DNA of 64,000 bases from an uncultured Rikenella sp. Its GTDB lineage: Bacteria; Bacteroidota; Bacteroidia; Bacteroidales; VadinHA17. This document shows, piece after piece, positions 1 to 17,172 of this stretch (positions are counted from its first letter, which is position 1; each line of letters starts with the position of its first letter). The stretch lies in NCBI GenBank assembly GCA_964621005.1, contig CAZUIF010000004.1, forward strand, positions 69,204 through 133,203, in the 5' to 3' direction. The translations under genes and the position numbers were made by a program. The notes beneath the pieces were generated by a model that saw only the letters and a list, made by a program, of their open reading frames with translations, was not told the DNA's origin and searched no databases.

Positions 1-400
1 TCGTTTGTGCAATTTTGGACATGGTCTTGAACCCGAAGTCACAGTCTTTTTCAATCTCCTCGTTGAGTCTTTTTGAATCGATGGCAATTACCCTGGCAGG
101 AGTCACAGCCATCACCCAGGCTGTGGAGATGTAGGGGTAAAAGACTGCTGACCATGAAAAAAGCTGCCCTTCCTCAATTGATCCCAGGTGTATTCTCTTT
201 TCGTGAGGCAGGCTTATACCCAGTGAGAGCGAACCGGTCAGCAGGATATAGACCTCGGACAATTCGTCATACTGGTCAAAGATTATTTCCTTAACCCTGA
301 ATTCCCTGATGGAAGAGATCATCACGATTCTTGAGAGCTGTTCCTCAGTGTATTTGTCGAAGAATCTGATCTTTTTCAGATCATCAGTATTCAAATTCAT
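1..400 (-). CDS. Cyclic nucleotide-binding (Crp effector-type) domain protein, 5' part only; continues past the left window edge
   Basis: My own translation of the minus strand from the ATG at 398-400 gives 133 codons without a stop (MNLNTDDLKKIRFFDKYTEEQLSRIVMISSIREFRVKEIIFDQYDELSEVYILLTGSLSL...GSIEEGQLFSWSAVF...ARVIAIDSKRLNEEIEKDCDFGFKTM). The pattern is typical of a cNMP-binding beta-barrel. It starts 16 nt downstream of the preceding gene on the same strand. It is absent from the ORF track because it is open-ended. Confidence 0.6.
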   Translation of the reverse strand, partial: MNLNTDDLKKIRFFDKYTEEQLSRIVMISSIREFRVKEIIFDQYDELSEVYILLTGSLSLGISLPHEKRIHLGSIEEGQLFSWSAVFYPYISTAWVMAVTPARVIAIDSKRLNEEIEKDCDFGFKTMSKIAQT

Positions 401-415
401 GACATTACCTTTATA

Positions 416-1252
416 TTATTTCCATATCTCGGGGTTGTGTTTTATCTCATTGTAGGTAAAGACAGGCCCGTCCTTGCATACAAAGAATTCTCCCATCATG
501 CAGTGACCGCATTTGCCGAGACCGCATGACATGTTTTTCTCCATTGAGAGGTATATCCGGTCTTCCGGGTAACCCATCTCAAGCAGCCTGATGGTTCCGA
601 ATTTCATCATGATTGGCGGACCGCACACTACTGCCACCGAGTTGTCAATATTTACCCTGATGCTGTCAAGAAGCTTGGTGGCAACACCTACAGGACCATC
701 CCAGTCATCATCGGTAATATCAACCGTGCGGTAGGCTTCAAACTTACCGATGCTGTTGAGCCTGCTGAACAGAGGCTTGTAGATGCAGTCTGCCGGCGTC
801 TTGGAACCGTAGCAGAGAATAACCTTTTCAAGGTCATCCTTCATATGCTCAAGGGTGAAGAGCAGTGAACGGATCGGGGCAAGGCCGCATCCGCCCCCGA
901 GTATCAGCACCTCCTTGCCCCTGAATTGGGTTACCGGGTATCCTCTTCCGAAAGGACCCCTGATACCCATGACAGCCCCCGGTTTCAGTTCATGCATTAT
1001 ACCGGTGACATACCCTGTTTTCATTACTGTTACTTCCAGCCTCTCCGTCACCAGGGGTGATGACGAAGGTGTAAAGGGTGCCTCTCCTGCACCGTCAACC
1101 GACAGTTCAATGAATTGTCCCGTGCTGAAGACGAACTCCTTCTCGGGAACCAGCACGAAGGTTTTGATCAGGGGAGACTCTTCGATCACCTCGGTGAGAT
1201 TAGCCCTTAAAGGTTTATATATATTATGGTTGTGACCGGTCATAGGAATCAT
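416..1252 (-). CDS. FAD/NAD(P)-binding oxidoreductase with a C-terminal [2Fe-2S] site (sulfhydrogenase gamma / AsrB-like subunit)
   Basis: 278 aa. It has a ferredoxin-reductase-type fold signature (GQFIELSV, RGPFG, LILGGGCGLAPIRS) and a C-terminal CGLGKCGHC...C cluster motif. Its start overlaps the stop of the upstream 4Fe-4S gene at 1252. Confidence 0.8.
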   Translation of the reverse strand: MIPMTGHNHNIYKPLRANLTEVIEESPLIKTFVLVPEKEFVFSTGQFIELSVDGAGEAPFTPSSSPLVTERLEVTVMKTGYVTGIMHELKPGAVMGIRGPFGRGYPVTQFRGKEVLILGGGCGLAPIRSLLFTLEHMKDDLEKVILCYGSKTPADCIYKPLFSRLNSIGKFEAYRTVDITDDDWDGPVGVATKLLDSIRVNIDNSVAVVCGPPIMMKFGTIRLLEMGYPEDRIYLSMEKNMSCGLGKCGHCMMGEFFVCKDGPVFTYNEIKHNPEIWK

Positions 1253-2241
1253 CAGATGAGTTCCATGAAGAGTTCATTCTTGTTTATCTTTCCCAGGCAG
1301 GCCTCGATGCATCTGCCACAGCCCGTGCAGGCAAGTGAACGGAATTTCTGAGGCCGCCATACATACTTGCACATATACCTGTTCCTGAAGCGGTGGTCAA
1401 GTTCAAACAGTGCATCTTCACCCCCGGCAACCCTTTCGAATCCCGGGTACTGACAGGCATCAGCCTGTTTCACCTTTTCAAAGCCAGGCCTGTCGATAAG
1501 GATAAAGCAACTGCATGTGGGACAGATGGTTGTGCAGGCCCCGCATGAAACGCACTTTGAGGCATATTTCTTCCAGGTATCCCGCCCCGCCTTGATTACG
1601 ATCTCCCCGGTGGTTTTGTAGTCAGGCAGATTTTTATTCAGGGCGGCAAGAGCAGTCTCAATTTCCTTATGTTTTTCCTCCGCCAGGACTGTCCCTGCAG
1701 GATCATCTACCCGTTCAGCTGCCGGCAACTCTTTTGCCAGCTCTGCGCCACGGCCGGTGATTACCCTGATGAACATGTTATCACCCGCTGAAAAAACTGC
1801 CATATCCGCGATTTCCTCCGACCATGGCCTGACTCCGTAAGAAGTACAGTGGCAATGCTCGTTAACAGAATGGCAGTCTGCTGCAATTATCAGGGTGTTA
1901 TTCCTCCGTTCCCTGTAGAAAGGATCAGGGAATGCCTCGTCAAGATAAATCTCATCAAGCAGGGCAAGAGCCGTCACATCACAGTTGGGTACCCCGATAA
2001 TTATCCTGGGTCTTCCTTTTTTACCGGTATTCGAGACATTTTCCCTTACAGGCAGGAAAAAATTCTTGAGCGGGGTGGCCGGCTTTGGTATGTTATACGC
2101 GATCTCATCAGCATGACCCGGCCTGAATGGCTCATAATCAAGGCTGAATTCATCCTTCACCGGAACGAATATGTCATGTGAGGAGAGCAGATTTTCCAGT
2201 GAACGATGCCAATCTTCCTTTCTAATGGTTATGTAGTACAT
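1252..2241 (-). CDS. 4Fe-4S dicluster protein (sulfhydrogenase beta / AsrA-like subunit)
   Basis: 329 aa with two ferredoxin-type motifs (CVSCGACTTICPTCSC and CTGCGRCIEAC). It is translationally coupled to the downstream flavoprotein subunit. Confidence 0.75.
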   Translation of the reverse strand: MYYITIRKEDWHRSLENLLSSHDIFVPVKDEFSLDYEPFRPGHADEIAYNIPKPATPLKNFFLPVRENVSNTGKKGRPRIIIGVPNCDVTALALLDEIYLDEAFPDPFYRERRNNTLIIAADCHSVNEHCHCTSYGVRPWSEEIADMAVFSAGDNMFIRVITGRGAELAKELPAAERVDDPAGTVLAEEKHKEIETALAALNKNLPDYKTTGEIVIKAGRDTWKKYASKCVSCGACTTICPTCSCFILIDRPGFEKVKQADACQYPGFERVAGGEDALFELDHRFRNRYMCKYVWRPQKFRSLACTGCGRCIEACLGKINKNELFMELI

Positions 2242-2244
2242 TAT

Positions 2245-2262
2245 ATGTGAGAAGATTCACAT
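2245..2262. promoter_or_regulatory. Candidate Rex operator upstream of the 2241(-) operon
   Basis: ATGTGAG-AAGA-TTCACAT is an 18-nt palindrome with 7-4-7 spacing, matching the known Rex consensus TTGTGAA-N4-TTCACAA. It lies 4 nt upstream of the start codon of the 4Fe-4S gene. Confidence 0.5.
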
Positions 2263-2430
2263 AATAAAGTTAGATGTGCAATCAACTCAAGTCAAATTTT
2301 TTTTATCCCTTATTTGTAAGGCAGATAATTATTAATTGATAACATATTATTAATCAATATTATATTTTAATGCATGCTGTTTGAAGAAGTTAGTTTAAAT
2401 TGCATAACGGATTTGTGTTTCAATGAATTA

Positions 2431-2448
2431 ATGTGAAACAATTCACAA
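2431..2448. promoter_or_regulatory. Candidate Rex operator overlapping the rex start codon (autoregulation)
   Basis: ATGTGAA-ACAA-TTCACAA matches TTGTGAA-N4-TTCACAA at 13 of 14 specified positions. The only possible in-frame start of rex (GTG 2433, just after an in-frame TGA at 2424-2426) lies inside the site. Confidence 0.65.
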
Positions 2449-3086
2449 AACACAACACCAGGAACAGTCTCAGGCGGATTTTTCTTTATCACGGGCTCCT
2501 GGTAAGGCTTAACTCCATGGGGGTAAGCAGGGTCTATTCGTACACTCTTGCCGAGGGGGCAGGGGTGACACCCGAACAGGTCAGGAAGGACTTTTCAGAA
2601 TACGGTATAAGAGGCAACAGGAGGGGAGGCTATATTACCGGCTCGCTTCTGAACGAGATGGAGAATCTCTTCAAGAGGGACCGCATCACCAATGTGATAC
2701 TAGTGGGGATGGGCAACCTCGGGCAGGCACTCTCCAAGTATGCACGTTTCATCCAGCGCGGAATAAACATCGTCGCAACGTTTGACATTGACCCCTTCAA
2801 GCAGAAGACAAGGGATGAACTGCAGGTTTATTCTCCCGGGCGGCTGCAGGAGATAATAGACCGGTTCCATGTCACTGTTGCTATCATCGCCGTACCTGAC
2901 ATCTCGGCACAGGAGGTATGCAATGAACTGGTAAACATGGGTATCAGGGGTATTGTCAATTTTTCGCCTGTGCTGCTCAGGGTGCCTGAATACGTGATTG
3001 TCAACAACGTTAACCTCAGTGATGAGATAGAGAGCGTCATCTGGTCCGTTTACCGGATGAAGGAGAGGCAATCGCTTTACCTTTAG
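2433..3086 (+). CDS. rex: Redox-sensing transcriptional repressor Rex
   Basis: 217 aa. The N-terminal winged helix (RRIFLYHGLL...VSRVYSYTLAEGAGVTPEQVRKDFSEYG..G.RRGGY) plus a Rossmann GMGNLGQAL motif is the classical Rex architecture. It uses a GTG start. Confidence 0.85.
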   Translation: MKQFTKHNTRNSLRRIFLYHGLLVRLNSMGVSRVYSYTLAEGAGVTPEQVRKDFSEYGIRGNRRGGYITGSLLNEMENLFKRDRITNVILVGMGNLGQALSKYARFIQRGINIVATFDIDPFKQKTRDELQVYSPGRLQEIIDRFHVTVAIIAVPDISAQEVCNELVNMGIRGIVNFSPVLLRVPEYVIVNNVNLSDEIESVIWSVYRMKERQSLYL

Positions 3087-3091
3087 CTGCA

Positions 3092-5362
3092 ATGGAAACA
3101 GGTTATGAAATACTTGTCAGGGGGCTTGTTCAGGGTGTCGGATTCAGGCCTTTCATAAGCAGGCTCGCCCTCCGGCATTGCCTTACCGGCGAAGTCGTCA
3201 ACAGGAGTGACGGGGTAAGGATTGTACTGAAGTGTGACCTGGCCTCCCTGAAGCGATTCGTGGATGATATACGGACCCAGGCTCCTCCGGCAGCGAATAT
3301 CAAATCGATAGAGTTCAGCCGGACTGATGCCGGGAATTACAGTGAATTCACAATAAACTCCAGCCTCGATGAGGGGGATGCAATCACGGAAGTCAGTCCT
3401 GATATTGCCGTTTGCCATGAGTGCCTTTCCGATCTTGCAGATGATCCGCGGCGGATTGATTACCCTTTTGTGAACTGTACGAACTGTGGTCCGCGTTTTA
3501 CAATAATCAGGGCTCTGCCCTATGACAGGGCTGCTACCACCATGGCTCCGTTCAGGATGTGCCGGCCATGTGCATCTGAATACAGCGATATCAATGACAG
3601 GAGGTATCATGCCCAGCCCGTGGCATGCAACGACTGCGGTCCGGAATACACCCTCAGATCTCACGGCGGAGAAGGAGAAATAAATGGCATCACAGCCATT
3701 CTGCGAAAAATAGCTGACCGCCTTGCTGCCGGAGAGAGTGTTGCTGTGAAGTCCACCGGAGGATACAACCTCATGTGTGATGCGCTGAACGAAACAGCAG
3801 TATCGGATTTAAGGCTGAGGAAGCAGCGTGACATGAAGCCTTTTGCCGTGATGTTCAGGGATATTGAAGCCCTGAGGCAGTACTGCCTGACGGATGATGA
3901 CGAGGAGGATCTGCTGCTTTCCTGGAGGAGACCTATACTAATCCTGCGGCAGAGGAAGCCGCTGGCACCTTCGGTCAGCAGCGGCCTGAACACCACCGGT
4001 GCGATGCTGCCCCATATGCCCCTGTACCACATGCTTTTCGGGATACTGCGGACTCCTGCTGTGGTGCTCACCTCGGGAAACCTGAGCGAAGAGCCGATAA
4101 TCATTTCAGACACTGCCGCCCTCAGGGATCTGCTACCATTGGCGGGCTGCGTGGTGAGTTACAACAGGGAGATAAACAACAGGGCTGATGATTCAGTCGT
4201 AAGGATGGGTTCAGGAAGGACAATCATGATACGCAGGTCGCGTGGTTATACTCCGCAGCCGGTCGACCTCGCTGAAGGCGCGGAGGGTATATTTGCCGCA
4301 GGCGCGGAGCAGAAAAACTGCTTCTGCATCGGTAAGGGCCGGCGTGCCATTTTGAGTCAGTATATAGGGGATATCAGAAATGTGGCCACGTATGATTATT
4401 ATACTGAAACCTACGGACTCTTCTCATCCCTCTTCAGGTTTGAACCCTCCGATGTTGCCTGCGACATGCATCCTGATTACCTCCCGGGCAGGTTTGCCGA
4501 AGAGCTGGCAGGGGTAAAGGGGCTGCCTCTTGTCAGGATTCAGCACCACCATGCCCATGCAGTCTCAGTCATGGCTGAACATCAGCTTGCCGGAAAAGTC
4601 ATCGGGGTAGTCATGGACGGAACGGGCTTCGGAACAGACGGCAATATATGGGGCAGTGAGTTCATGATTGCCTCGGCAACAGACTTTGAACGGTACTCCC
4701 ATTTTGAGTATTTCATGATGCCAGGAGGTGATATGGCGGTTTACGAACCATGGAGAATGGCTCTCTCATGTCTCTTCAGCTGTTTTGGCAGTCACTATGA
4801 TTTCACCTCGCTCAGGCTTTTCAGGGAAACCGATCCGGTCAGGCTCTCCACTGTCATGGAAATGCTTGTCCACAGGATCAATGCCCCTCTGACCTGTGGC
4901 GCAGGAAGAATATTCGATGCTGTTTCTGCACTGCTGGGGCTGTGTGCAAGGTCTTCGTTTGATTCCGAAGCACCTATGCGCCTGGAATCAGCGGTCAGCG
5001 GCAGTACAGATGATTATTATCCGTTTACGGTGAATGGCATCGTTCGCCTGGGTGATGTTTTCCGTGAACTGACAGTTGATATTATGCGGAGTGAAATATC
5101 GTATGCCGCCACAAAATTCCATAACACAGTTGCACAGGTGATCCTTTCGGTTTGCAAAAGCATGAGGAATGACACGGGGCTTAATGATGTCGTGCTGTCA
5201 GGCGGGGTTTTTCAGAACAGGTACCTGCTTGAAAAATCTTTGTACCTTTTATCCATGAACCGCTTCAGTGTATACACAAATAATCAGGTTCCCCCGAATG
5301 ACGGGGGTATATCCCTGGGCCAGCTGGCAGTTGCAGCGGAAAGGAGGCGATTATGTGTCTGA
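3092..5362 (+). CDS. hypF: [NiFe]-hydrogenase maturation carbamoyltransferase HypF
   Basis: 756 aa. It has an acylphosphatase-like N-terminus (LVRGLVQGVGFRPF) and two zinc-finger pairs (CHECLSDL...CTNCGPRFT; CRPCASEY...CNDCGP), followed by YrdC-like and Kae1-like domains. It starts 5 nt after the rex stop. Confidence 0.95.
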   Translation: METGYEILVRGLVQGVGFRPFISRLALRHCLTGEVVNRSDGVRIVLKCDLASLKRFVDDIRTQAPPAANIKSIEFSRTDAGNYSEFTINSSLDEGDAITEVSPDIAVCHECLSDLADDPRRIDYPFVNCTNCGPRFTIIRALPYDRAATTMAPFRMCRPCASEYSDINDRRYHAQPVACNDCGPEYTLRSHGGEGEINGITAILRKIADRLAAGESVAVKSTGGYNLMCDALNETAVSDLRLRKQRDMKPFAVMFRDIEALRQYCLTDDDEEDLLLSWRRPILILRQRKPLAPSVSSGLNTTGAMLPHMPLYHMLFGILRTPAVVLTSGNLSEEPIIISDTAALRDLLPLAGCVVSYNREINNRADDSVVRMGSGRTIMIRRSRGYTPQPVDLAEGAEGIFAAGAEQKNCFCIGKGRRAILSQYIGDIRNVATYDYYTETYGLFSSLFRFEPSDVACDMHPDYLPGRFAEELAGVKGLPLVRIQHHHAHAVSVMAEHQLAGKVIGVVMDGTGFGTDGNIWGSEFMIASATDFERYSHFEYFMMPGGDMAVYEPWRMALSCLFSCFGSHYDFTSLRLFRETDPVRLSTVMEMLVHRINAPLTCGAGRIFDAVSALLGLCARSSFDSEAPMRLESAVSGSTDDYYPFTVNGIVRLGDVFRELTVDIMRSEISYAATKFHNTVAQVILSVCKSMRNDTGLNDVVLSGGVFQNRYLLEKSLYLLSMNRFSVYTNNQVPPNDGGISLGQLAVAAERRRLCV

Positions 5363-5628
5363 GCCTTCCGGCGAAGGTATTGAAGGTCGAAGGTGACATG
5401 GCTGAGGTCTCCGTCGGCGGAGCTGTTTTCAGGGCGGGTGTGCAGATGGTTGAAGGCGTCAGGCCGGGTGACTATATACTTCTTCATGCCGGTTTTGCCA
5501 TAGGCAGGATGAAGGAGGAAGAGGCACTTGAGACACTGCGCCTCCTGGACGAGGTTGACGGAGCAGGACAGGGAAACGGGTACGGAGGGACTTCGGGTGT
5601 TACCGGGGAGTATCATACCGGCGCATGA
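5353..5628 (+). CDS. hypC: Hydrogenase assembly chaperone HypC/HupF
   Basis: 91 aa with the invariant N-terminal MCL(S/A)xP (MCLSLPAKV). It overlaps the hypF end by 10 nt and the hypD start by ATGA. Confidence 0.9.
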   Translation: MCLSLPAKVLKVEGDMAEVSVGGAVFRAGVQMVEGVRPGDYILLHAGFAIGRMKEEEALETLRLLDEVDGAGQGNGYGGTSGVTGEYHTGA

Positions 5629-6710
5629 AATATGTTGATGAATACAGGAACGGCAGACATATTGCCAGGCTGGCTGAGATGATCAGGCAGGAGGCTGTCT
5701 GTGATTATTCCTTCATGGAGGTCTGCGGCGGTCATACAGCTGCCATACACCGGTTCGGGATACCTTCACTTCTTCCATCCCGAGTCAGACTGCTGTCAGG
5801 ACCCGGATGTCCGGTATGTGTCACACCAGCCGGCTACATAGACACGCTGGTCGCCCTCGCCGCGGGTGAGGATGTGACAGTGGCCCTGTTCGGTGACCTG
5901 ATGAGGGTCCCCGGGACCACATCCTCACCGGCAGAGGCGAAAGCCTCCGGTGCTGACATCAGGGTAGTGCTGTCAGCACATGAAGCGCTCGACCTTGCAA
6001 GATCCAATCCGCAGAGAAGGGTGATCTTCGCTGCAATAGGGTTTGAGACAACTGCTCCCGGCACTGCAGTTACTCTGACGGAGGCTGAAAGAGACGGTGT
6101 GGGTAACTTCCATGTGCTGAATGCACATAAGGTCATGCCCCCTGCCATGGAGATGCTTTTAAGGGAGGGTACCCGGATCGACGGTTTTATCTGCCCGGGG
6201 CATGTTGCTGTGATTACAGGATCTGCGGTCTTTGATTTTATCCCCCGCAGGTACGGCCTGGCCTGTGCTGTTGCCGGGTTTGAGCCGGCCGATATAATGC
6301 TTGCCGTGCTGATGCTCATCAGGCAGGTAAACAGCCGCAAACCGAAGGTCGAAATTGAGTACCGCAGGGCGGTATCTGCAGAAGGCAACCAGATGGCGCA
6401 GCTATACATGCGGGAGGCCTTTGAGCCGGGGGATGCTGAATGGAGGGGGCTAGGCATCATTCCCTCCGGAGGCATGAATTTACAGGAACGGTTCCGCAGG
6501 TTTGATGCCGGCCTTGTCTTCAATGTTGACACACCTGCACCGGTCAGTGAAACGGGCTGCATATGCGGTGACATACTCAGAGGGGTCAGGACACCCGCGG
6601 ACTGTCCTCTTTTTTCCACGTCATGCACCCCTGACAATCCCCAGGGAGCATGCATGGTTTCAGCCGAAGGATCATGCAATACCTTTTTTATATACAACAG
6701 TCATGAGTGA
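5625..6710 (+). CDS. hypD: Hydrogenase formation protein HypD
   Basis: 361 aa with conserved HypD motifs (CGGHT, GPGCPVCV, GFETT, PGHV). Confidence 0.95.
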   Translation: MKYVDEYRNGRHIARLAEMIRQEAVCDYSFMEVCGGHTAAIHRFGIPSLLPSRVRLLSGPGCPVCVTPAGYIDTLVALAAGEDVTVALFGDLMRVPGTTSSPAEAKASGADIRVVLSAHEALDLARSNPQRRVIFAAIGFETTAPGTAVTLTEAERDGVGNFHVLNAHKVMPPAMEMLLREGTRIDGFICPGHVAVITGSAVFDFIPRRYGLACAVAGFEPADIMLAVLMLIRQVNSRKPKVEIEYRRAVSAEGNQMAQLYMREAFEPGDAEWRGLGIIPSGGMNLQERFRRFDAGLVFNVDTPAPVSETGCICGDILRGVRTPADCPLFSTSCTPDNPQGACMVSAEGSCNTFFIYNSHE

Positions 6711-7731
6711 AAAGATCACCCTTGGCCACGGAAGCGGGGGCAGGCAGGCGCAGAAACTGATCCGCGAACATTTTGCGGCCCGTTTCGGCATGTCCGGACC
6801 GATGACCGACTCAGCCATACTGACAGCACCCTCAGGGACCCTCGCCTTCACGACAGACTCATATGTGATTGATCCTCTCTTCTTTCCGGGAGGAAACATC
6901 GGAAAGCTTGCTGTCTGCGGGACAGTGAATGACCTTGCTGTCTCAGGGGCAGAGCCGAAGTTCCTGTCGGCTGCCTTCATCATTGAGGAGGGGTTCGGCA
7001 TGGAACAGCTCGATGAAATCGTGACTACCATGGCTGACGAGGCAGAGAAGGCAGGGGTGCGGATTGTCACAGGCGACACCAAGGTTGTGGATAAGGGCAA
7101 GTGTGACAGGATCTTTATCAACACTGCAGGGGTGGGACTGCTCAGCAGTGACCTGGTGCATGTCAGCACCGCTTCATCAGTAAAGGATGGAGATTTGCTG
7201 ATAATCAACGGGCCACCGGGTAATCACGCGGTGACTATCCTTGCTGCCCGTCAGGGGCTATCGTTCGATATACCGCTGCTATCTGACTGCGCATCCCTGA
7301 ATCACCTGGTACGCAGGATCACGGAGAAACCTGAAGCGGTTCATTTCATGAGAGACCTGACCCGCGGAGGACTGGCTGCCGTGCTCAATGAACTGACTGC
7401 AATGCTCAACGAGCAGCCTGCCATGCACCGGTACTGTATTACGGTTGATGAAGCTTCGGTTCCCTTTCAGGAACAGGTCAGGGGACTCTGTGAGATACTC
7501 GGCTTCGACCCTCTCAGCCTGGCAAGCGAAGGACGGTTGCTGGTGGTGGCTGCGCCAGGGGAGGCCGCGGCAATACTGCAAAGGATGCGCAGTGACCCTG
7601 ATGGTCGTGATGCCTCTGTCATCGGCCGGATTACAACCGGAAGGGAAGGCCGCGTCATACTTAACGGAGCCTCCGGGGGGCAGAGGTTCCTGGATATGCC
7701 TTCAGGCCAGCTGTTGCCGCGTATATGCTGA
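6703..7731 (+). CDS. hypE: Hydrogenase expression/formation protein HypE
   Basis: The ORF-track entry starts at 6502, but the homologous N-terminus (MSEKITLGHGSGG) begins at the ATG at 6703, overlapping the hypD stop (ATGAGTGA). It has an AIR-synthase-like fold and the C-terminal PRIC motif typical of HypE. Confidence 0.93.
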   Translation: MSEKITLGHGSGGRQAQKLIREHFAARFGMSGPMTDSAILTAPSGTLAFTTDSYVIDPLFFPGGNIGKLAVCGTVNDLAVSGAEPKFLSAAFIIEEGFGMEQLDEIVTTMADEAEKAGVRIVTGDTKVVDKGKCDRIFINTAGVGLLSSDLVHVSTASSVKDGDLLIINGPPGNHAVTILAARQGLSFDIPLLSDCASLNHLVRRITEKPEAVHFMRDLTRGGLAAVLNELTAMLNEQPAMHRYCITVDEASVPFQEQVRGLCEILGFDPLSLASEGRLLVVAAPGEAAAILQRMRSDPDGRDASVIGRITTGREGRVILNGASGGQRFLDMPSGQLLPRIC

Positions 7732-7741
7732 AAGGAAGAGG

Positions 7742-8083
7742 ATGCATGAGCTGAGAATAGCAACGGACCTTGTTGAGATGGTTGAAGGATATGCAGCCGA
7801 AGCGGGCCTTCAGGCAGTCACAAGGGTGAATGTGAGCTTCGGGCAGTTTATACAGATCGTGCCTGACCTGTTTGAGACTGCATTCCGTGAAGCAGCAGCA
7901 GATACCGTTGCCACAGGGGCAGAAATCAGTATCGAGATCATCGCCGCAGAAATGCGCTGCCTTGGCTGCGGATCATTATACATACCTTCGGATGACCTGA
8001 ACGGATGCTCCGTCTGCGGCTCGTCTGAGATTGACATTGTACACGGAAAGGAATTATTTATAAAAAGTATTGAAGGAGAATGA
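7742..8083 (+). CDS. hypA: Hydrogenase nickel insertion protein HypA
   Basis: 113 aa starting with the conserved MHE motif (MHELRIATDLV) and carrying a CxxC...CxxC zinc site (CLGCG...CSVCG). The track ORF from 7445 is a 5' extension that overlaps hypE. Confidence 0.9.
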   Translation: MHELRIATDLVEMVEGYAAEAGLQAVTRVNVSFGQFIQIVPDLFETAFREAAADTVATGAEISIEIIAAEMRCLGCGSLYIPSDDLNGCSVCGSSEIDIVHGKELFIKSIEGE

Positions 8084-8745
8084 TCATGGAAATCAGGATT
8101 ATGAAAAACATCCTCGACAGGAACCAGAACAAGGCTGAAGAGGTTCGGACACTGCTGACAGGGAAGAAGGTGATGATGGTCAATATAATCAGTTCCCCCG
8201 GCGCCGGCAAGACGACCCTCCTTGAAAGGACCTGCGAGGCGCTGGCCGGCAGCGTCAGGATAGGAGTAATAGAGGGTGATGTGACCACTGACCGGGATGC
8301 ACAGCGTCTGAAGAAATACAATATACCAATAGTGGCAATCAATACGGAAGGAGGGTGTCATCTTGATTCCCACAGCATCTCGAAAGCCCTTGTTCATTTT
8401 GATCTTGACACCATCGATCTGCTCTTTGTTGAAAATGTAGGCAACCTTATCTGTCCTTCGCAGTTTGACCTGGGAGAAACCTTCAAGCTTGCTGTTGTCA
8501 GCACGGCTGAAGGGGACGACAAGCCGGCCAAGTATCCGATGCTTTTCAGCCAGGCAAGGGCTGTCATCCTGAACAAGACGGACCTTTTACCGTATACCAA
8601 CTTCCGCCTGGACGCCTTTGCTGCCGACATGGCTGCCATAAATCCCCGGATCACAATCTTCAGGACTTCAGCCGTGAAAGGGGAGGGAATGGCAGAGTGG
8701 CTGGAGTGGCTCAGAAACCAGATCAAGGCTTTTTCCACGGTCTGA
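8080..8745 (+). CDS. hypB: Hydrogenase nickel incorporation GTPase HypB
   Basis: 221 aa with a P-loop (SSPGAGKTTLL), a CHLD metal site and ENVGNLICP. It shows an ATGA overlap with hypA. An alternative start is the ATG at 8086. Confidence 0.9.
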   Translation: MIMEIRIMKNILDRNQNKAEEVRTLLTGKKVMMVNIISSPGAGKTTLLERTCEALAGSVRIGVIEGDVTTDRDAQRLKKYNIPIVAINTEGGCHLDSHSISKALVHFDLDTIDLLFVENVGNLICPSQFDLGETFKLAVVSTAEGDDKPAKYPMLFSQARAVILNKTDLLPYTNFRLDAFAADMAAINPRITIFRTSAVKGEGMAEWLEWLRNQIKAFSTV

Positions 8746-8833
8746 CGCGAGGCTTTCGCAATTGCGTATTCGCCCATTAATTCAAGCCTTAAATATTCAT
8801 AAACATGACATAAGTAAGGTTTTGGGAATTCTA

Positions 8834-8851
8834 TTGTTATTAATTTCACAG
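8834..8851. promoter_or_regulatory. Weak Rex-like site upstream of the hydrogenase structural operon
   Basis: TTGTTAT-TAAT-TTCACAG has one good half-site (6/7) and one poorer half-site (5/7). It lies about 60 nt upstream of the 8910 start. Confidence 0.3.
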
Positions 8852-8909: not shown

Positions 8910-9374
8910 ATGTATCACACTGGTAACTTGGTGAAGGAGCTGGCGGATAAGCATGGCCGCAACAGGGAGAGTCTTATGCCCATCCTTCAGGATATTGTGA
9001 AGAAGTACAATTACCTTACTGATGAATCAATGGTGGAGGTTGCCACTGAGCTTGACATCTCAGCTGCAGAGGTATACGGCACTGCATCATTCTACACTTT
9101 TCTTGACACGGAGGAGAGGGGCAGGAATGTGATCAGGGTCTGCAAGACAATTACCTGTTCGATGAAAGGCAAGAATGATATCATCAGCACCATTGAGGAT
9201 ATCCTGAAGATCAGGGTTGGCGAGACTACCCCGGACAAGATGTTCACGCTGCTTGAGACCAACTGTATAGGATGGTGTCACAAGGCTCCCGCAATTCTGA
9301 TCAATGACATGCCTTATACTGATCTTACGCCGGAGACAGTTATTGATGTGATTAAAGGTTATATGCGCAAATAA
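8910..9374 (+). CDS. NuoE-like [2Fe-2S] thioredoxin-fold subunit of an NAD(P)H-linked hydrogenase
   Basis: 154 aa with a NuoE/HydC-type Cys pattern (CKTITC...CIGWC). Confidence 0.85.
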   Translation: MYHTGNLVKELADKHGRNRESLMPILQDIVKKYNYLTDESMVEVATELDISAAEVYGTASFYTFLDTEERGRNVIRVCKTITCSMKGKNDIISTIEDILKIRVGETTPDKMFTLLETNCIGWCHKAPAILINDMPYTDLTPETVIDVIKGYMRK

Positions 9375-9389
9375 GAGGGAGGCACTGAA

Positions 9390-10550
9390 ATGAAAAACAA
9401 AGGACTTACAAAGGTTGACCTTATATTCGAAAGCGTTGATGTCAGGAAAGTAATGACCAAGGCCTTCGAGATGACCAGCGAAGAGATTATCCAGGAGATT
9501 CTTGAATCAGGCCTGAAAGGACGTGGCGGCGCCGGTTTTCCTACCGGTCTGAAATGGAAATACACTGCTGCAGAAAAGGATCCGGAGAAATATATCGTCT
9601 GTAATGCTGACGAGGGTGAACCCGGCACATTCAAGGACCGCGAGATACTTGACAAGGTAGCTTCGAAGGTTTACGCCGGGATGGCAATCGCCGGCAAGGC
9701 GATGGGGTCAAAGAAAGGATACATCTACCTCAGGGGTGAGTACAGGTTCCTTCTGCCGCAGCTCTTTGTGGAGCTCCATAAGTTCCACAAAATGATCAAT
9801 GAGATAGGGTATGATTTCAGTATTGAATACCGGATGGGCAGCGGCGCCTACATCTGCGGAGAGGAGAGCGCACTGTTCGAATCGATTGAGGGTTTCCGCG
9901 GTGAACCGCGAAACAAACCTCCCTATCCGACTGTCAGCGGACTTTTTTCGAAGCCAACCTCGATCAACAATGTGGAGACACTTGTCACTGCAATGATGAT
10001 CATCGAAAAGGGTGCACAGGAATATGTAAAGCTTGGAACCCAGGACTCACGCGGGTCAAAGGTCTTCTCTATCTCGGGTGACACTCCGATTCCGGGAATC
10101 TTCGAGCTTGAGCTCGGGATGACGGTGCAGGAGTTCGTCAATGAATTCGGTGACGGTGACACAAAGGCAGTGCAGGTGGGCGGTGCATCCGGCTTCTGCG
10201 TGCCGCGCAAGAAGTTTGCTGAGACAATCATCGGGTTTGAAGGAGTCCCCACAGGAGGTTCCATGAAGCTGTTCAACAGCTCCCGCTCGATGTACAACGT
10301 CCTTCACAACTACCTTGATTTCTTTACCGAGGAATCATGCGGCCAGTGTACCCCGTGCAGGGTCGGTTGCCAGCAGCTTCTCAAGGGTGTTGAGAAGGTG
10401 AAGAAGGGAGAGGCCAAATCAACCTATCTGAATGAACTGGTTAAGCTTGCCGACACCATGAAGGTGGCATCCAAGTGCGGGCTGGGCCAGTCAGTGGGCA
10501 ATGCCTTCAAATCAATAGTCGAGAATTTCAGGGAAGAGATTATTTACTAA
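9390..10550 (+). CDS. NuoF-like flavoprotein subunit (FMN/NAD(P)H-binding, one [4Fe-4S]) of a hydrogenase
   Basis: 386 aa with GLKGRGGAGFPTGLKW, ICNADEGEPGTFKDR, GAGAYICGEESAL and the N3-cluster motif ESCGQCTPCR...C. It has no extra N- or C-terminal Fe-S domains. Confidence 0.88.
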   Translation: MKNKGLTKVDLIFESVDVRKVMTKAFEMTSEEIIQEILESGLKGRGGAGFPTGLKWKYTAAEKDPEKYIVCNADEGEPGTFKDREILDKVASKVYAGMAIAGKAMGSKKGYIYLRGEYRFLLPQLFVELHKFHKMINEIGYDFSIEYRMGSGAYICGEESALFESIEGFRGEPRNKPPYPTVSGLFSKPTSINNVETLVTAMMIIEKGAQEYVKLGTQDSRGSKVFSISGDTPIPGIFELELGMTVQEFVNEFGDGDTKAVQVGGASGFCVPRKKFAETIIGFEGVPTGGSMKLFNSSRSMYNVLHNYLDFFTEESCGQCTPCRVGCQQLLKGVEKVKKGEAKSTYLNELVKLADTMKVASKCGLGQSVGNAFKSIVENFREEIIY

Positions 10551-10566
10551 AACAGCATAGAACAAA

Positions 10567-12348
10567 ATGGTTACTCTAAAGATAAATGATCAGGAAGTAC
10601 AGGTTGAGGAAGGAACAACAGTCCTCGAAGCCGCAAAAAAGCTGGGTGTAAACATCCCGACTCTCTGCAACCACCCGGATCTTTGCGTGGCCGGTAACTG
10701 CCGCGTATGCGTGGTGGAACAGAAGGGTGCCCGCACCCTGATAGCCGCCTGCGCGATGCCTGCCTCGGAAGGAATGGATATTCACACCAACTCACTCAAG
10801 GTAAGGAACGCACGCAAGCATATCGTCGAACTGCTTCTTTCAGAGCACAGGGCAGACTGCACCAAGTGTTACAAGAACCAGAAGTGCGAGCTTCAGACCC
10901 TTGCAAACGAGTATTCGTTCGGTGAGCATATTTTCCTTGACCTGGTTGAAGGTCACGCATATAATATTGACAGGTCGTCACCCTCATTCCTCAAGGATGA
11001 CAGCAAGTGCATCAGGTGCCAGCGCTGTGTCCGCACATGCGCCCAGTTGCAGCATGTTTCTGCAATTGCAGTTGCGAACAAGGGTGCCCACATGAAGATC
11101 TCCTCATTCCATGACAGGCCGATGAGCCACGTCGTCTGCACCAACTGCGGACAGTGCGTCAACCGCTGTCCGACGGGAGCACTTACCGAGAAAACCTACA
11201 TTGATCAGGTTTGGGATGCAATCTATGATACTGACAAGCACGTGGTTGTGCAGACCGCCCCGGCAGTCAGGGTGGCCCTGGGCGAAGACCTTGGATATGA
11301 TCCGGGTGAGAGGGTTACAGGCAAGATGGTCACTGCACTGCGCCAACTTGGGTTTGATTCTGTACTTGACACTGATTTCACTGCTGACCTTACAATCATC
11401 GAAGAAGGTACCGAGCTGCTTACCAGGCTGAAGAAGGTACTTGTAGAGAATGACAAGAACACGGCGCTGCCGATGTTCACCTCGTGCTCTCCAGGATGGA
11501 TCAAGTTCATCGAGCACAAGTACCCGCACATGCTCCCCAACCTGTCAACATGCAAATCACCCCAGCAGATGTTCGGAGCATTGGCAAAGACATTCTATGC
11601 CCAGAAGAGGAATATAGATCCTGCCAAGGTTGTGTCAGTGTCAATAATGCCCTGCACGGCCAAGAAGTATGAGGCTGACAGGCCGGAGATGAGGTCAAGC
11701 GGTTACAAGGACATAGACTTTGTTCTTACCACGCGCGAACTTGCAGTGATGATCAAGCAGGCAGGTATTGACTTCCGCACTTTGGAACCCTCAAATTATG
11801 ATTCAGTCATGGGTACATCCACAGGTGCCGCAGTCATTTTCGGTGCCACCGGAGGTGTGATGGAGGCAGCACTGCGTACTGCCTATGAGATTGTTACCGG
11901 CAGACCGGTTCCTTTCACAAACCTGAACATAACCCCTGTCCGCGGTATGGAAGGGGTAAAGGAAGCCACGGTAAAGATTGAAGGAACAACAGAGGAATGG
12001 CGTTTCCTTGAAGGTGCCGAGCTGAAGGTTGCAATTGCACACGGTCTTGTCAATGCAAACAAGGTTGCGAAGGCGGTGAGCACAGGCAAGGCTTCATATC
12101 ACTTCATTGAGATCATGGCCTGCCCGGGCGGATGTATCGGCGGCGGCGGACAGCCCATCCCGACCAATGCGGCAGTACGTCAGAAACGTATGGAGGCAAT
12201 ATATTCCGAGGATATGCATATGGACCTGAGGAAATCACACGATAATCCCGAGGTGGTTGCAATCTACCAGGAGTTCCTCGAGAAGCCCAACGGCCATAAG
12301 TCGCATGAACTACTCCATACCCATTACACTGAAAGGGAGTCTTATTAA
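10567..12348 (+). CDS. hydA: [FeFe]-hydrogenase catalytic subunit with a CpI-like M3 domain layout
   Basis: 593 aa. The layout is an N-terminal 2Fe-2S ferredoxin domain, a His-ligated cluster region, two 4Fe-4S motifs (CIRCQRCVRTC, CTNCGQCVNRCP), then the H-cluster domain. The H-domain carries MPCTAKKYE and EIMACPGGCIGGGGQP. The first H-cluster motif reads TSCSPGW instead of TSCCPxW (see findings). Confidence 0.92.
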   Translation: MVTLKINDQEVQVEEGTTVLEAAKKLGVNIPTLCNHPDLCVAGNCRVCVVEQKGARTLIAACAMPASEGMDIHTNSLKVRNARKHIVELLLSEHRADCTKCYKNQKCELQTLANEYSFGEHIFLDLVEGHAYNIDRSSPSFLKDDSKCIRCQRCVRTCAQLQHVSAIAVANKGAHMKISSFHDRPMSHVVCTNCGQCVNRCPTGALTEKTYIDQVWDAIYDTDKHVVVQTAPAVRVALGEDLGYDPGERVTGKMVTALRQLGFDSVLDTDFTADLTIIEEGTELLTRLKKVLVENDKNTALPMFTSCSPGWIKFIEHKYPHMLPNLSTCKSPQQMFGALAKTFYAQKRNIDPAKVVSVSIMPCTAKKYEADRPEMRSSGYKDIDFVLTTRELAVMIKQAGIDFRTLEPSNYDSVMGTSTGAAVIFGATGGVMEAALRTAYEIVTGRPVPFTNLNITPVRGMEGVKEATVKIEGTTEEWRFLEGAELKVAIAHGLVNANKVAKAVSTGKASYHFIEIMACPGGCIGGGGQPIPTNAAVRQKRMEAIYSEDMHMDLRKSHDNPEVVAIYQEFLEKPNGHKSHELLHTHYTERESY

Positions 12349-12549: not shown

Positions 12550-13914
12550 ATGAGTGGTTTTGATTTTTCAAAAAGGGATTCTTTTGGAAGCAGGCTGGGA
12601 GTTATAGCTGCAGCAGCCGGATCGGCCGTAGGCCTGGGAAACATCTGGAGGTTTCCATATATTCTTGGTGAGAACGGGGGAGGTGCTTTCCTGCTTGTAT
12701 ATCTCATCATCGTTTTCGCCATTGGCATTCCGGTGATGATGTCCGAGCTTGTGATAGGAAGAAGGACGGAGCGAAACCCGGTTGGTGCCTTCAGGATGCT
12801 TTCATCGCGCAGGCCATGGTATCTTGTCGGTATGATGGGGATCGTTGCAGCATTCATGATACTTGCCTTTTACACTGCCGTTGCCGGCTGGACCCTGGAG
12901 TACATATACCAGATTCTCATCGGCGGCATAAAAGGGAGGTCATCCGCCGAACTTACTGTTATGTTTGATGCATTCAGGTCTGAGTCACTGAGACCTGCTC
13001 TGTGGTTCTCGGTCTTTCTCCTGGCAACAGCGGGCATAGTGCTTGGGGGAGTGCGGAAAGGAATTGAAAAATCTACGAAGGTGCTGATGCCCCTGCTCTT
13101 AATCCTGCTTCTTTTCATGTGCATCAAGGCTCTTACACTACCCGGTGCAGGAAAGGGTGTTGAGTTTCTCTTCAGGCCTGATTTCTCCAAGATCACAGGC
13201 ACCACGGTGCTTATGGCTCTCGGGCAGGCATTCTTTTCCCTGAGCATAGGTATGGGTACACTTATTACATATGGTTCCTATATTCCGAAGGATAACAAGC
13301 TGGCCAGCACGGCGGTGCAGGTATCCATGATAGATCTTATGATCGCTGTTCTTGCAGGCCTGGCAATATTTCCTGCGGTCTTTGCATTTGGTATCTCCCC
13401 TTCATCAGGAGAGGCACTGACATTCATTGTCCTGCCGGGGATATTCCAGCAGATGACCGGAGGGATGATCTTTGCATTTTCATTCTTTTTCCTGCTGGCT
13501 ATCGCTGCGCTTACCTCCACTATATCAGTGATGGAAGTTATAGTGGCATATTTTTCAGAACAGCTGAACCTGAGCAGGCGAACCGCAGTAATCATTGCAA
13601 CTGCCTCCATGTTCATACTTGGTATATCGGCATCTCTGTCATGGGGTATCATGAGGGATGTGAAGCTTTTCAACCTGAATATCTTTGACCTGTTCAATTA
13701 CACTACCGCAAACATACTTCTGCCTGTTGGCGGGCTTCTGATAGTTGCCTTCCTGGGATGGTTCTTTCCGGGCCACTCAGTCAGGGACGAGCTCTCCAAC
13801 GGCGGCACGCTCCCGGTGAGGTATTACTCACTTTACAGGTTCATCATAAGGTTTATCGCCCCTGTGGCAATAGCCCTTGTCTTTCTGAACGGGCTTGGTT
13901 TTCTTAAATTCTGA
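12550..13914 (+). CDS. Neurotransmitter:sodium symporter (NSS/SNF) family transporter, copy 1
   Basis: 454 aa with the NSS N-terminal signature GSRLG.IAAAAGSAVGLGNIWRFPY and about 11-12 hydrophobic segments. Confidence 0.9.
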   Translation: MSGFDFSKRDSFGSRLGVIAAAAGSAVGLGNIWRFPYILGENGGGAFLLVYLIIVFAIGIPVMMSELVIGRRTERNPVGAFRMLSSRRPWYLVGMMGIVAAFMILAFYTAVAGWTLEYIYQILIGGIKGRSSAELTVMFDAFRSESLRPALWFSVFLLATAGIVLGGVRKGIEKSTKVLMPLLLILLLFMCIKALTLPGAGKGVEFLFRPDFSKITGTTVLMALGQAFFSLSIGMGTLITYGSYIPKDNKLASTAVQVSMIDLMIAVLAGLAIFPAVFAFGISPSSGEALTFIVLPGIFQQMTGGMIFAFSFFFLLAIAALTSTISVMEVIVAYFSEQLNLSRRTAVIIATASMFILGISASLSWGIMRDVKLFNLNIFDLFNYTTANILLPVGGLLIVAFLGWFFPGHSVRDELSNGGTLPVRYYSLYRFIIRFIAPVAIALVFLNGLGFLKF

Positions 13915-13931
13915 ACACAAAAGAGTACGGC

Positions 13932-15674
13932 ATGCACGGATTAAACGATTTTCTTGTAAAGCTTGACGGATACCTTGGAGGTCATCCCTGGTTCATGGTG
14001 CTTCTGATCGGTACCGGTCTCTTCTTTACAATCTATCTTGGCTTTCCCCAGCTGAGGTACTTCCGCCATGCAATAAGGATTACCCGGGGAAAATATGATC
14101 ATTCCCATGACGTCGGTGATACGTCTCATTTTCAATCGCTTGCTACGGCCCTTTCGGGAACGGTGGGAACCGGCAACATAGCCGGTGTGGCTCTTGCAAT
14201 TCACCTGGGCGGCCCGGCCGCCCTGTTCTGGATGCTTGTGACTGCGGCCATAGGGATGTGCACGAAGATGGTTGAGGTTTCAATCTCGCACAAATACAGG
14301 GATATTCTGCCTGACGGTTCGGTCTCGGGCGGGCCGATGTACTACATGAAGAAACGGCTCAACATCAAAACCCGCAGCGGGAAGGTCATCAAAACGGGTG
14401 TTGTGCTGGGTGCTTTTTTTGCCGGGGCTACCATACTGAGCTCCTTCGGTACAGGAAGCCTTCCCCAGATAAACAGCATCTCAAACTCTGTGTTTGCCTC
14501 ATTCGGCCTTAAGCATATCATCACGGGAGCGGTCCTGGCCGTGCTCCTGGCCCTGGTTATAATCGGCGGAATAAAAAGGATTGCAAAGGTCACCTCTGTT
14601 CTTGTGCCGTTCATGGCCATGCTTTACCTTACAGGAGCCCTGCTGGTAATCTTTTCGCATCCCGGAAACATAATACCATCATTCATCTCAATTTTTGCCG
14701 ATGCATTTACCGGGCCTGCTGCCGCAGGCGGCTTCCTTGGCGCCTCATTTGCATTTGCCATGAACAGGGGAGTCAACAGGGGCCTTTTTTCGAATGAGTC
14801 AGGGCAGGGTTCAGCGCCTATAGCCCACTCAGCCGCCCGTGCCCCGGAGCCGGTCTCGGAAGGGATGGTGGCGCTGCTTGAGCCCTTTATTGATACAATC
14901 TGCATCTGCACCCTGACCGGTCTCGTGCTGCTGGCTTCGGGAGCGTGGAATACAAAGACCGAGAACCAGTTCCAGCCAACTGACGTACAGGTGCTTTCCG
15001 GTGTCTATGACGATGCCGTAAGGACGGATGTTGAGAAACTGGGCAGGCACCTGAGCGGCAAGGAATTTCTTGACCTGTTCACCGGAAAGCTCAGGATTGA
15101 GAACGGGGAGATAGCTACGGCAGGAGTGTCAATCATACACGCAAGGTCACTCGCTGATAATGTAAGGTTTATTTCAGGCAGGGACCCGTTCAACGGAGAC
15201 CTGGATGTTGTTGCCGGAAAAATTGCCCCGGTCTCAAACCTGACTGTCCGCGGAGAATCCCTGATACACAGCGCACCCCTCACAACTTTTGCCTTCAGCC
15301 GCAGCATACTAAAGGGTTTCGGATCATATATAGTCACCTTCTCCCTGTTACTCTTTGCATTTTCCACAGCCATTTCATGGTCGTACTACGGTGACAGAGC
15401 GACAACATATCTCTTTGGACAGAAGTATGTTATTGTCTACAGGCTTGTTTATGTCACTGCCTTTTTCGTGGCTTCATTCACGGATACCACTATCATATGG
15501 TCACTTTCATACGTTGCAATTGTACTGATGGCAGTTCCCAACCTTGTTGGCATATTCCTTCTCAGGCGTGAGGTGAAGGATTCGGTCCGTGATTACTGGC
15601 AGACCTTCTCGAAACAATATCCCGGTGAAAAGATCTCAGTGAAGATGGCAAAACGGTTTGGGTTCAATCAATAG
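13932..15674 (+). CDS. Alanine/glycine:cation symporter (AGCS) family transporter, copy 1
   Basis: 580 aa with the AGCS signature FQSLATALSGTVGTGNIAGVA and GLFSNESGQGSAPIAHSAA. It starts 17 nt after the NSS gene. Confidence 0.9.
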   Translation: MHGLNDFLVKLDGYLGGHPWFMVLLIGTGLFFTIYLGFPQLRYFRHAIRITRGKYDHSHDVGDTSHFQSLATALSGTVGTGNIAGVALAIHLGGPAALFWMLVTAAIGMCTKMVEVSISHKYRDILPDGSVSGGPMYYMKKRLNIKTRSGKVIKTGVVLGAFFAGATILSSFGTGSLPQINSISNSVFASFGLKHIITGAVLAVLLALVIIGGIKRIAKVTSVLVPFMAMLYLTGALLVIFSHPGNIIPSFISIFADAFTGPAAAGGFLGASFAFAMNRGVNRGLFSNESGQGSAPIAHSAARAPEPVSEGMVALLEPFIDTICICTLTGLVLLASGAWNTKTENQFQPTDVQVLSGVYDDAVRTDVEKLGRHLSGKEFLDLFTGKLRIENGEIATAGVSIIHARSLADNVRFISGRDPFNGDLDVVAGKIAPVSNLTVRGESLIHSAPLTTFAFSRSILKGFGSYIVTFSLLLFAFSTAISWSYYGDRATTYLFGQKYVIVYRLVYVTAFFVASFTDTTIIWSLSYVAIVLMAVPNLVGIFLLRREVKDSVRDYWQTFSKQYPGEKISVKMAKRFGFNQ

Positions 15675-15788
15675 GCTGGAAATCAGCGAATAAGCCTTCA
15701 TAATATTTTTTTACCGCTCTGATACAAGGGATTGAGTTTTTATTCACCTTTGATTTCCTTTAATTCTTAAGTTATCATTGTCTGAAAG

Positions 15789-17153: not shown

Positions 17154-17172
17154 CCCCGACACCTGACCGAAA

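Follow-up and report, generated by a model that had tools for sequence, protein, structure and literature searches.

Introduction

The founding member of the Rex family of redox-sensing repressors, that of Streptomyces coelicolor, is said to have been described by Brekasis and Paget in 2003 as the product of the first gene of an autoregulated rex-hemACD operon, with an operator of the TTGTGAA-N4-TTCACAA type (ROP) from which the protein is released by NADH. In Thermotoga maritima, Rex (TM0169) reportedly controls hydrogen production genes, as Ravcheev et al. are said to have found in 2012. The subject of this work is a rex gene located at positions 2433-3086 of a 64-kb stretch of contig CAZUIF010000004.1, from an uncultured Rikenella sp. 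(the whole stretch is hereafter called the window), which is followed on the same strand by the [NiFe] hydrogenase maturation genes hypFCDEAB and by [FeFe] hydrogenase genes, and which is divergent from a predicted [NiFe] hydrogenase operon. Comparison of this locus with those of related species suggests that three palindromes, located on either side of the intergenic region and ahead of the [FeFe] genes, are operators for the Rex that is encoded between them, a reading to which we assign a probability of roughly 0.8.

Two described systems come closer to this arrangement. In Caldithrix abyssi, genes Cabys_3675-3679 have been predicted to form an [FeFe] hydrogenase operon headed by rex, which a candidate site for autoregulation by Rex, cTGTGAATCAATTCACAt, precedes by 38 bp (Kublanov et al. 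2017, PMC5317091). Here, too, rex precedes an NADH-linked [FeFe] hydrogenase of the NuoE/NuoF/HydA type, within the same FCB superphylum, and one of the relatives studied here (L025, see below) has an identical layout; the present locus differs in that hypFCDEAB stand between rex and the [FeFe] genes, in that the operator lies on the start codon and not 38 bp upstream of it, and in the presence of additional operators for the divergent [NiFe] operon and for the [FeFe] genes. In Caldicellulosiruptor bescii, Rex was found in electrophoretic mobility shift assays to bind ahead of its own gene, of the [FeFe] hyd genes, of hydG, which encodes a maturase, and of the [NiFe] ech cluster of 19 genes (Sander et al. 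2018/2019, PMC6391272). The association of Rex with hydrogenase structural genes, maturation genes and autoregulation is an established combination in that organism, a Firmicute, in which, unlike here, rex is monocistronic, its site lies 41 bp from the ATG, and the maturation genes are not fused to rex. The 19-gene Ech cluster of C. bescii includes the hyp genes as well. The two earlier systems are more remote: in S. coelicolor the genes co-transcribed with rex serve haem biosynthesis and the operator is located upstream of the gene, not inside its start codon, while T. maritima shares the consensus motif and the derepression of hydrogenases when NADH is high, but belongs to another phylum, and is not known to have been described with a rex-hyp fusion.

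In the literature searched, neither a Rex regulon of Bacteroidota nor a fusion of rex to hyp genes was found described. An earlier note on this DNA had presented the union of rex with hyp genes, with an operator on the start codon, as something not seen before; the C. abyssi (PMC5317091) and C. bescii (PMC6391272) precedents narrow what can be called novel. What appears to be new is the fusion of rex to [NiFe] maturation genes, the placing of an operator within the start and first codons, the layout of three operators for two types of hydrogenase, and the phylum itself. By these searches, the locus provides the first well-supported comparative-genomics case of a Rex regulon and operator motif in Bacteroidota. 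It also suggests that a lineage of uncultured Bacteroidales, known from sediment, fen, and anaerobic-digester metagenomes, places the H2 production of two hydrogenases and the maturation of the [NiFe] enzyme under a single NADH/NAD+ sensor, which bears on the control of fermentative H2 release in such communities. In addition, it offers a textbook-quality example of dual coding: throughout at least 80 species, a GTG start and the first five codons of a gene are held in place by an operator. Both the Rex sequence and the three sites are known in enough detail for direct synthesis and testing.

Three candidate Rex operators

The Rex operator consensus, TTGTGAA-N4-TTCACAA, is an 18-bp inverted repeat in which 14 bases are scored. 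Two palindromes of this kind are found in the intergenic region that separates rex from the divergent operon (2242-2432), which spans 191 bp and has a GC content of 23.6%, as compared to 50.6% for the whole window. Site 1, ATGTGAGAAGATTCACAT, at positions 2245-2262, carries 3 mismatches to the consensus and is separated by 3 nt from the start codon (ATG 2241-2239) of the first gene on the minus strand; site 2, ATGTGAAACAATTCACAA, at 2431-2448, carries 1 mismatch and holds the GTG of rex as well as its codons 2-6. Site 3, TTGTTATTAATTTCACAG, is a degenerate candidate with 3 mismatches that is located at 8834-8851, 59 nt before the start (8910) of a NuoE-like gene. One perfect TGTGAA half-site is retained by each of the three. 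The position weight matrix (PWM) used for scoring was built from orthologues of these same sites, so that their high scores (23.7, 25.3 and 20.0 bits for sites 1, 2 and 3, respectively) are partly circular, and the informative part is the lack of other matches, the best of which reaches 8.7 bits in the window.

The 64 kb contain two exact copies of the 10-base core TGTGA-N6-TCACA, against 0.09 expected, and a count of two was reached in none of 100 shuffled sequences; both occurrences lie within the one 191-bp intergenic region, flanking rex. A looser search that allowed up to 3 mismatches to the 14-base consensus is not significant alone, with 6 matches in the window against 3.6 expected. The other 3-mismatch matches that it produced, at 34937, 41535 and 48913, all lie inside open reading frames, score at most 8.0 bits, and were rejected.

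Conservation among relatives

The strongest evidence for a function of the palindromes comes from related genomes. A scan with the Rex protein, limited to one genome per species, yielded 276 relatives, of which the best 80 (60-92% identity) were kept; all are metagenome-assembled genomes of uncultured, Rikenellaceae-like Bacteroidales, and their loci are numbered L007-L086, L001-L006 being contigs from the same organism as the window. Within 887 kb of loci from these 80 species there are 152 exact cores, a count to be read with the reservation that many of the genomes are mutually related and are therefore not independent: 77 are found at site 2 and 72 at site 1, two lie in the middle of the intergenic region (L066 and L084), one is located upstream of an Mvh-type hydrogenase operon (L086), and none occurs anywhere else in these loci. 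Conservation across the 80 species settles the question of whether the sites exceed chance. The half-sites are invariant, while the spacers vary (GAAGAT, TAAGAT, TTGAAT, CAGAAT, and others), which is the pattern expected of a protein-binding site, and surrounding intergenic columns are only 40-60% conserved in comparison with 100% for those of the half-sites. In ten relatives, site 2 is a full TTGTGAA-N4-TTCACAA without a single mismatch. Of 34 loci, 33 keep site 3, in the form TTGTTA-N6-T(C/A)ACA, at a distance of 69-80 nt ahead of the NuoE-like gene, and three relatives carry the symmetric form TTGTTA...TAACA, a half-site variant that is known for clostridial Rex.

Gene order is preserved to a similar extent. 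The rex gene is directly followed by hypF in 79 of the 80 loci, and the order gamma-beta (divergent)/rex-hypF-hypC-hypD is kept wherever the contig reaches these genes, with the exception of L086; where it can be measured, the intergenic region is 178-192 bp long. The spacing between sites 1 and 2 ranges from 174 to 187 bp among relatives and is not phase-locked, which lends no support to looping between them. The two 18-nt palindromes, the weaker third site, the AT-rich divergent region, the GTG start within an operator, and the position of rex 5 nt ahead of hypF at the head of the hyp genes had all been pointed out in the earlier note, and they stand at the coordinates given here; the comparative genomics that it proposed, of rex-hypF adjacency and of the motif upstream of orthologous genes, agrees with it in the counts given above.

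Some loci display variations on this layout. A third Rex-like palindrome is present in the middle of the intergenic region in L066 and L084 (at approximately -116 from the rex start), as well as in L054, L060 and L070, with sequences such as ATGTGAAAAAAATCACAA or the symmetric TTGTTATTTTATTAACAA; the window itself has no palindrome at the position equivalent to that of L066 and L084. In L086, rex-hyp is divergent from a gene for a HycI-type maturation protease and not from a group 4 hydrogenase (sites at L086 4905-4922 and 5816-5833), and an operon for an Mvh-type [NiFe] hydrogenase (MvhD and the small and large subunits) is preceded, at approximately 107 nt, by an extra site with a perfect core, ATGTGAACCCATTCACAA. 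The latter site indicates that the motif follows hydrogenase genes into a different gene context.

Identity of the Rex protein and its start codon

The product of rex (217 aa, plus strand, GTG start) matches the winged-helix family PF06971 (Put_DNA-bind_N) at residues 12-55, with an E-value of 6.8e-11, and the Rossmann-type NAD(H)-binding family PF02629 (CoA_binding) at residues 84-180. The NCBIfam Rex equivalog NF003996 gives 200 bits, for a cut-off of 138, and NF003995 gives 176, for a cut-off of 126, while Rex structures in the PDB (3wg9, 3keo, 2vt2 and 1xcb) match with E-values of 1e-33 to 1e-25. In an alignment of 16 homologues, the motifs GMGNLG (residues 92-97) and FDID (117-120) are invariant, as is the region of VRKDFSEYG, which aligns with the recognition helix region of 3wg9 and 3keo. 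Judged by these matches, the gene at 2433-3086 encodes a bona fide Rex.

That GTG 2433 is the start of the gene is indicated by several observations. It comes straight after an in-frame TAA (2430-2432); initiation at the canonical codon that comes next, ATG 2517, would cost the protein residues 1-28 and with them part of the DNA-binding domain; the start is GTG in 80 of 80 species; and in 60 of the 76 rex loci that could be resolved, there is no other in-frame start upstream. Gene calls for rex differ on the contigs from the same organism, L001-L006, five of which give a protein of 189 aa (from ATG 2517) and one a protein of 217 aa (from GTG 2433). Many database entries of this Rex are probably truncated at the N-terminus.

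A probable operator within the rex coding sequence

The overlap between site 2 and the beginning of rex has left a trace in codon usage. Over the 80 species, codons 1-6 have near-zero synonymous entropy, in comparison with mostly 1-2 bits for codons 7-36: codon 2 is AAA in 77 of 80 species, codon 3 is CAA in all 64 that encode Gln, codon 4 is ATC in 44 of 44 cases of Ile, TTC in 35 of 35 cases of Phe and GTC in one, with neither T nor A ever in third position, codon 5 is ACA in 79 of 80, and codon 6 is AAA in all 80. Elsewhere in rex, Ile is preferentially encoded by ATA or ATT and Phe by TTT. Residues 3 (Q/R/K/E) and 4 (I/F/V) do vary, but always in a way that keeps TCACA. The near absence of synonymous change in the first 18 nt thus indicates that the operator constrains the coding sequence of rex, and the universal GTG start finds an explanation in the fact that an ATG would leave the half-site without its G at position 3. 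Since solved Rex structures align only from residues 11-13, and the Pfam match begins at residue 12, the operator appears to be written in a dispensable N-terminal tail.

The same operator yields an out-of-frame ATG-TGA ‘start-stop’ that overlaps the rex GTG (2431-2436), and ATGTGA recurs in the leader predicted for the [NiFe] operon. AUG trinucleotides close to start codons are normally avoided in Bacteroidota (PMC6847099).

A further peculiarity concerns the junction between rex and hypF. In the window, the rex stop codon (TAG 3084-3086) is followed by 5 nt and by the hypF ATG (3092). In 58 of 79 related species, there is no ATG, GTG or TTG ahead of the conserved N-terminus of HypF (I-I-Q-G-Y-E-I-L...), and the codon that aligns with the hypF ATG of the window (for example at L040 6657-6693) is ATT in approximately 49 loci, ATA in 9 and ATC in 7. 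In many relatives rex overlaps the hypF frame, by approximately 25 nt in the clade with a 227-aa Rex. These features suggest that in relatives hypF uses a near-cognate start with tight translational coupling to rex. A Rex-HypF fusion produced by a -1 frameshift was also considered for relatives without a canonical hypF start and was set aside, no slippery heptamer being present in L040.

A more ambitious scheme, which we regard as doubtful, would give the 18 nt at the start of rex three roles, those of Rex operator, of GTG start with the tail V-K-Q-(F/I)-T-K, and of an AUG-UGA start-stop or weak hairpin in the mRNA. Rex would then limit its own synthesis both transcriptionally and translationally, Hyp output would be set by the ribosomes that finish rex, and maturation capacity would be stoichiometrically coupled to the sensor.

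Promoter context and proposed mechanism

The primary sigma factor of Bacteroidota recognizes TAnnTTTG at approximately -7 and TTTG at approximately -33, and the commonest 5' untranslated region measures 23 nt (PMC7366714). A sigma-70 promoter scan was set aside as inapplicable to this phylum. On the minus strand, a candidate -7 box, TAACTTTA, is located at 2264-2271, 2 nt from site 1, and in 71 of 75 loci the operator core has a TAnnTTT(A/T) motif at a distance of 2-4 nt; a candidate -33 TTTG is found 21 nt upstream of the box (2293-2296), within conserved ‘tcAA’ columns, and in 67 of 71 loci a TTG precedes the box by 15-27 nt. These elements place the predicted transcription start inside site 1, which is a classic position for a repressor. 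On the plus strand, strong conservation between the middle of the intergenic region and site 2 is confined to one block, GTTTAAATTGCAT (consensus tTTAacTTgCat), at 2393-2405, 28-40 nt upstream of the GTG. If this candidate block serves as a -7-like box for rex, which we suggest tentatively, the leader would measure approximately 22-25 nt and site 2 would fall at approximately +20 to +40, in a roadblock position. For site 3, no confident promoter was recognized; TTTG at 8821-8824 and TAATTTCA at 8841-8848 are just 16 nt apart.

We infer both the promoter positions and Rex as the binding protein. The sign of regulation and the response to NADH would follow established Rex biology, including that of C. 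bescii (PMC6391272) and that reportedly described by Ravcheev et al. in 2012. At low NADH/NAD+, Rex would repress three units, namely the group 4 [NiFe] operon, rex-hyp, and the [FeFe] genes. On site 1, it would cover the predicted start and short leader of the divergent [NiFe] operon and block RNA polymerase; on site 2, it would act as a roadblock, or perhaps by occlusion, and autoregulate rex together with the co-transcribed hypFCDEAB; and on site 3, it would control the downstream genes for the NADH-dependent [FeFe] hydrogenase. A build-up of NADH would take Rex off the DNA, allowing both hydrogenases, the [NiFe] maturases and more Rex to be made, and the extra Rex would bring repression back once NADH had been reoxidized through H2 production. 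Apart from rex itself, the putative targets are NAD(P)H-linked [NiFe] and [FeFe] hydrogenases, H2-producing enzymes of the kind classically targeted by Rex (PMC6391272, PMC5317091).

Other explanations for the palindromes

Some of the observations weigh against the assignment of the sites to Rex. The core TGTGA-N6-TCACA is also that of CRP-type sites; site 1 (ATGTGA...TCACAT) departs from the Rex consensus at 3 positions, and its plus-strand half-site never has A at position 7; a regulator of the Crp/Fnr family is encoded 24 kb from the locus; and the intergenic alignment of relatives reveals neither a conserved promoter box adjoining site 2 nor a conserved leaderless arrangement. The idea that the palindromes bind a Crp/Fnr-family regulator, rex being merely a neighbour, gains from the fact that the ATGTGA-N6-TCACAT of site 1 fits a CRP-type core with flanking A/T better than it fits the Rex consensus, from the presence in the window of the gene in question (cNMP_binding and HTH_Crp_2 domains, 26469-27164, minus strand), and from the cyclic nucleoside monophosphate (cNMP)-binding-only protein encoded within the hydrogenase operon. 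However, the sites accompany rex throughout the 80 species and its start codon lies inside one of them, each site retains a perfect TGTGAA half-site in which position 7 is included, the ten relatives mentioned above match the Rex consensus at site 2 in 14 of 14 bases, and the TTGTTA/TAACA variant of site 3 is known for Rex and not for CRP. In addition, no linkage exists between the locus and the Crp-like gene, around which no palindrome of this kind is found, and the 151-aa cNMP-binding protein has no detectable DNA-binding domain. We therefore consider a Crp/Fnr-type regulator unlikely. It is of note that the Crp/Fnr-family gene lies approximately 1 kb from a thioredoxin-reductase-like gene (28176-29114).

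A second explanation places the function of the palindromes in the mRNA, in the form of hairpins that would hide the rex GUG or lie just before the AUG of the beta-subunit gene, or of an AUG-UGA start-stop that would throttle translation. Site 2 can indeed pair into a 6-bp stem that includes the GUG, a similar stem can form at site 1 on the minus-strand RNA, the ATG TGA of site 2 overlaps the GTG, and both local RNA structure and neighbouring AUGs affect translation initiation in Bacteroidota (PMC6847099). The predicted folds, however, are no more stable than those of shuffled sequences for the region of the rex GUG (2410-2470, z = -0.55) and for site 3 (z = -0.59), and only weakly more stable for the leader at site 1 (z = -2.1). 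Furthermore, position 12 of site 2 is A (ATCACA) in 43 of 77 relatives, leaving a stem of only 5 bp; the stems show no compensatory changes, being invariant and identical to a known transcription-factor motif; and unrelated genes are preceded by the same motif, its distance to the start codon differing among them. A role confined to the RNA is thus very unlikely. Least probable of all, to the point of being hard to credit, is the suggestion that the palindromes are core promoter or structural elements, or reflect slow divergence, without a dedicated regulator: sites 1 and 3 do lie beside or within promoter-like sequence and the genomes compared are interrelated, but neither the contrast in conservation between half-sites and surrounding columns, nor the Bacteroidota promoter consensus (TAnnTTTG, TTTG), which is unlike the palindrome, nor the position of site 2 within a coding sequence whose synonymous change it suppresses fits such an origin. 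Recognition by Rex hence remains the reading that we prefer for all three sites.

The locus and its two hydrogenases

Downstream of rex, the maturation genes follow one another closely on the plus strand: hypF (3092-5362), which encodes a carbamoyltransferase with Acylphosphatase, zf-HYPF, Sua5 and HypF_C domains in Pfam; hypC (5353-5628; HupF_HypC), which overlaps hypF by 10 nt; hypD (5625-6710; HypD, E = 1e-136), which shares an ATGA with hypC, a 4-nt overlap; hypE (6703-7731; AIRS and AIRS_C), whose start at 6703 is taken from gene calls and sequence and which overlaps hypD by 8 nt; hypA (7742-8083; HypA, a 113-aa gene call), after a gap of 10 nt; and hypB (8080-8745; cobW/HypB/UreG), with a 4-nt ATGA overlap with hypA. 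The set had been described in the earlier note as overlap-coupled throughout, which holds for each junction save that between hypE and hypA. A gap of 164 nt separates hypB from genes for a NuoE-like protein (8910-9374, plus strand) and a NuoF-like protein (9390-10550, plus strand), both recognized by family matches in Pfam and NCBIfam, and for a group A6 NADH-dependent [FeFe] hydrogenase (10567-12348, plus strand; NCBIfam NF040763, FeFe_hydrog_A6, 882 bits for a cut-off of 765). A terminator scan detected none between rex and hypF and none between hypB and the NuoE-like gene, and the total number of terminators that it reported was not above that of shuffled sequences.

The divergent operon, which the earlier note had read as an Fe-S/flavoprotein operon, turns out to be the head of a much larger unit of 14 or more genes. 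Within the window, on the minus strand, it comprises a gene for an Fe-S beta subunit like ShyB/HydB/AsrA (1252-2241; Pfam Fer4_22, with NCBIfam ShyB, HydB and AsrA all below their cut-offs), one for an FAD/NAD(P)-binding gamma subunit like AsrB/ShyC/HydG (416-1252; FAD_binding_6, NAD_binding_1 and DHODB_Fe-S_bind in Pfam, as well as NCBIfam), and one, identified by translation, for a 151-aa protein that consists of a cNMP-binding domain only and runs past the window edge (1-400). On contigs L001-L006, which continue beyond the window, Pfam and NCBIfam matches to the genes of L001 identify this cNMP-binding-only protein, a ferredoxin, NuoH-, NuoB- and NuoC-like subunits, a 401-aa [NiFe] large subunit, and Mrp-type membrane subunits. 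The large subunit (L001 14620-15825) carries ERICGICSTSH and DPCYCCTER, in which both Ni-Fe ligand motifs (RxCGxCxxxH and DPCxxCxxR/H) are intact. By its gene content, the operon specifies a membrane-bound [NiFe] hydrogenase of group 4, to which an NAD(P)H-type input module is added.

This operon (window 1-2241, minus strand; L001 10001-20990) joins sulfhydrogenase/AsrAB-like beta and gamma subunits, along with the 151-aa cNMP-binding-only protein, to an Mrp-Mbh-type group 4 [NiFe] hydrogenase; no description of such a set of subunits was met in the literature, in which no search aimed at it was made. Its product may be an NAD(P)H-linked, ion-translocating hydrogenase.

As the only [NiFe] enzyme seen at the locus, the group 4 hydrogenase is most likely the enzyme that the hyp products mature. 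[FeFe] hydrogenases depend on HydEFG for their maturation and not on Hyp proteins. The expectation that a third, weaker site precedes hydrogenase structural genes was therefore right as to the nature of the genes, which encode NuoE-like and NuoF-like proteins and a group A6 [FeFe] hydrogenase, but not as to their being served by the hyp products.

The origin of the arrangement may be reflected in L025 (3446-7080), a locus without hyp genes in which rex is followed by site 3 and then by genes for NuoE-like, NuoF-like and HydA [FeFe] hydrogenase proteins. This layout may be the ancestral one, and because it is shared with that predicted for C. abyssi, it suggests that hypFCDEAB was inserted into an ancestral rex-hydrogenase operon.

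Additional features of the locus

The centre of the intergenic region holds another conserved block, at 2341-2365, with the consensus TAA.atac....aatCAat...aTA, which in the window includes TTGAT-N12-ATCAA; it could be the site of a second regulator or a promoter element. Directly 3' of the [FeFe] hydrogenase gene, at 12550-18909 on the plus strand, stand four tandem transporter genes, two of which encode sodium-dependent (SNF-type) transporters and two alanine/amino-acid:cation symporters. They suggest an amino-acid-fermenting lifestyle tied to H2 production.

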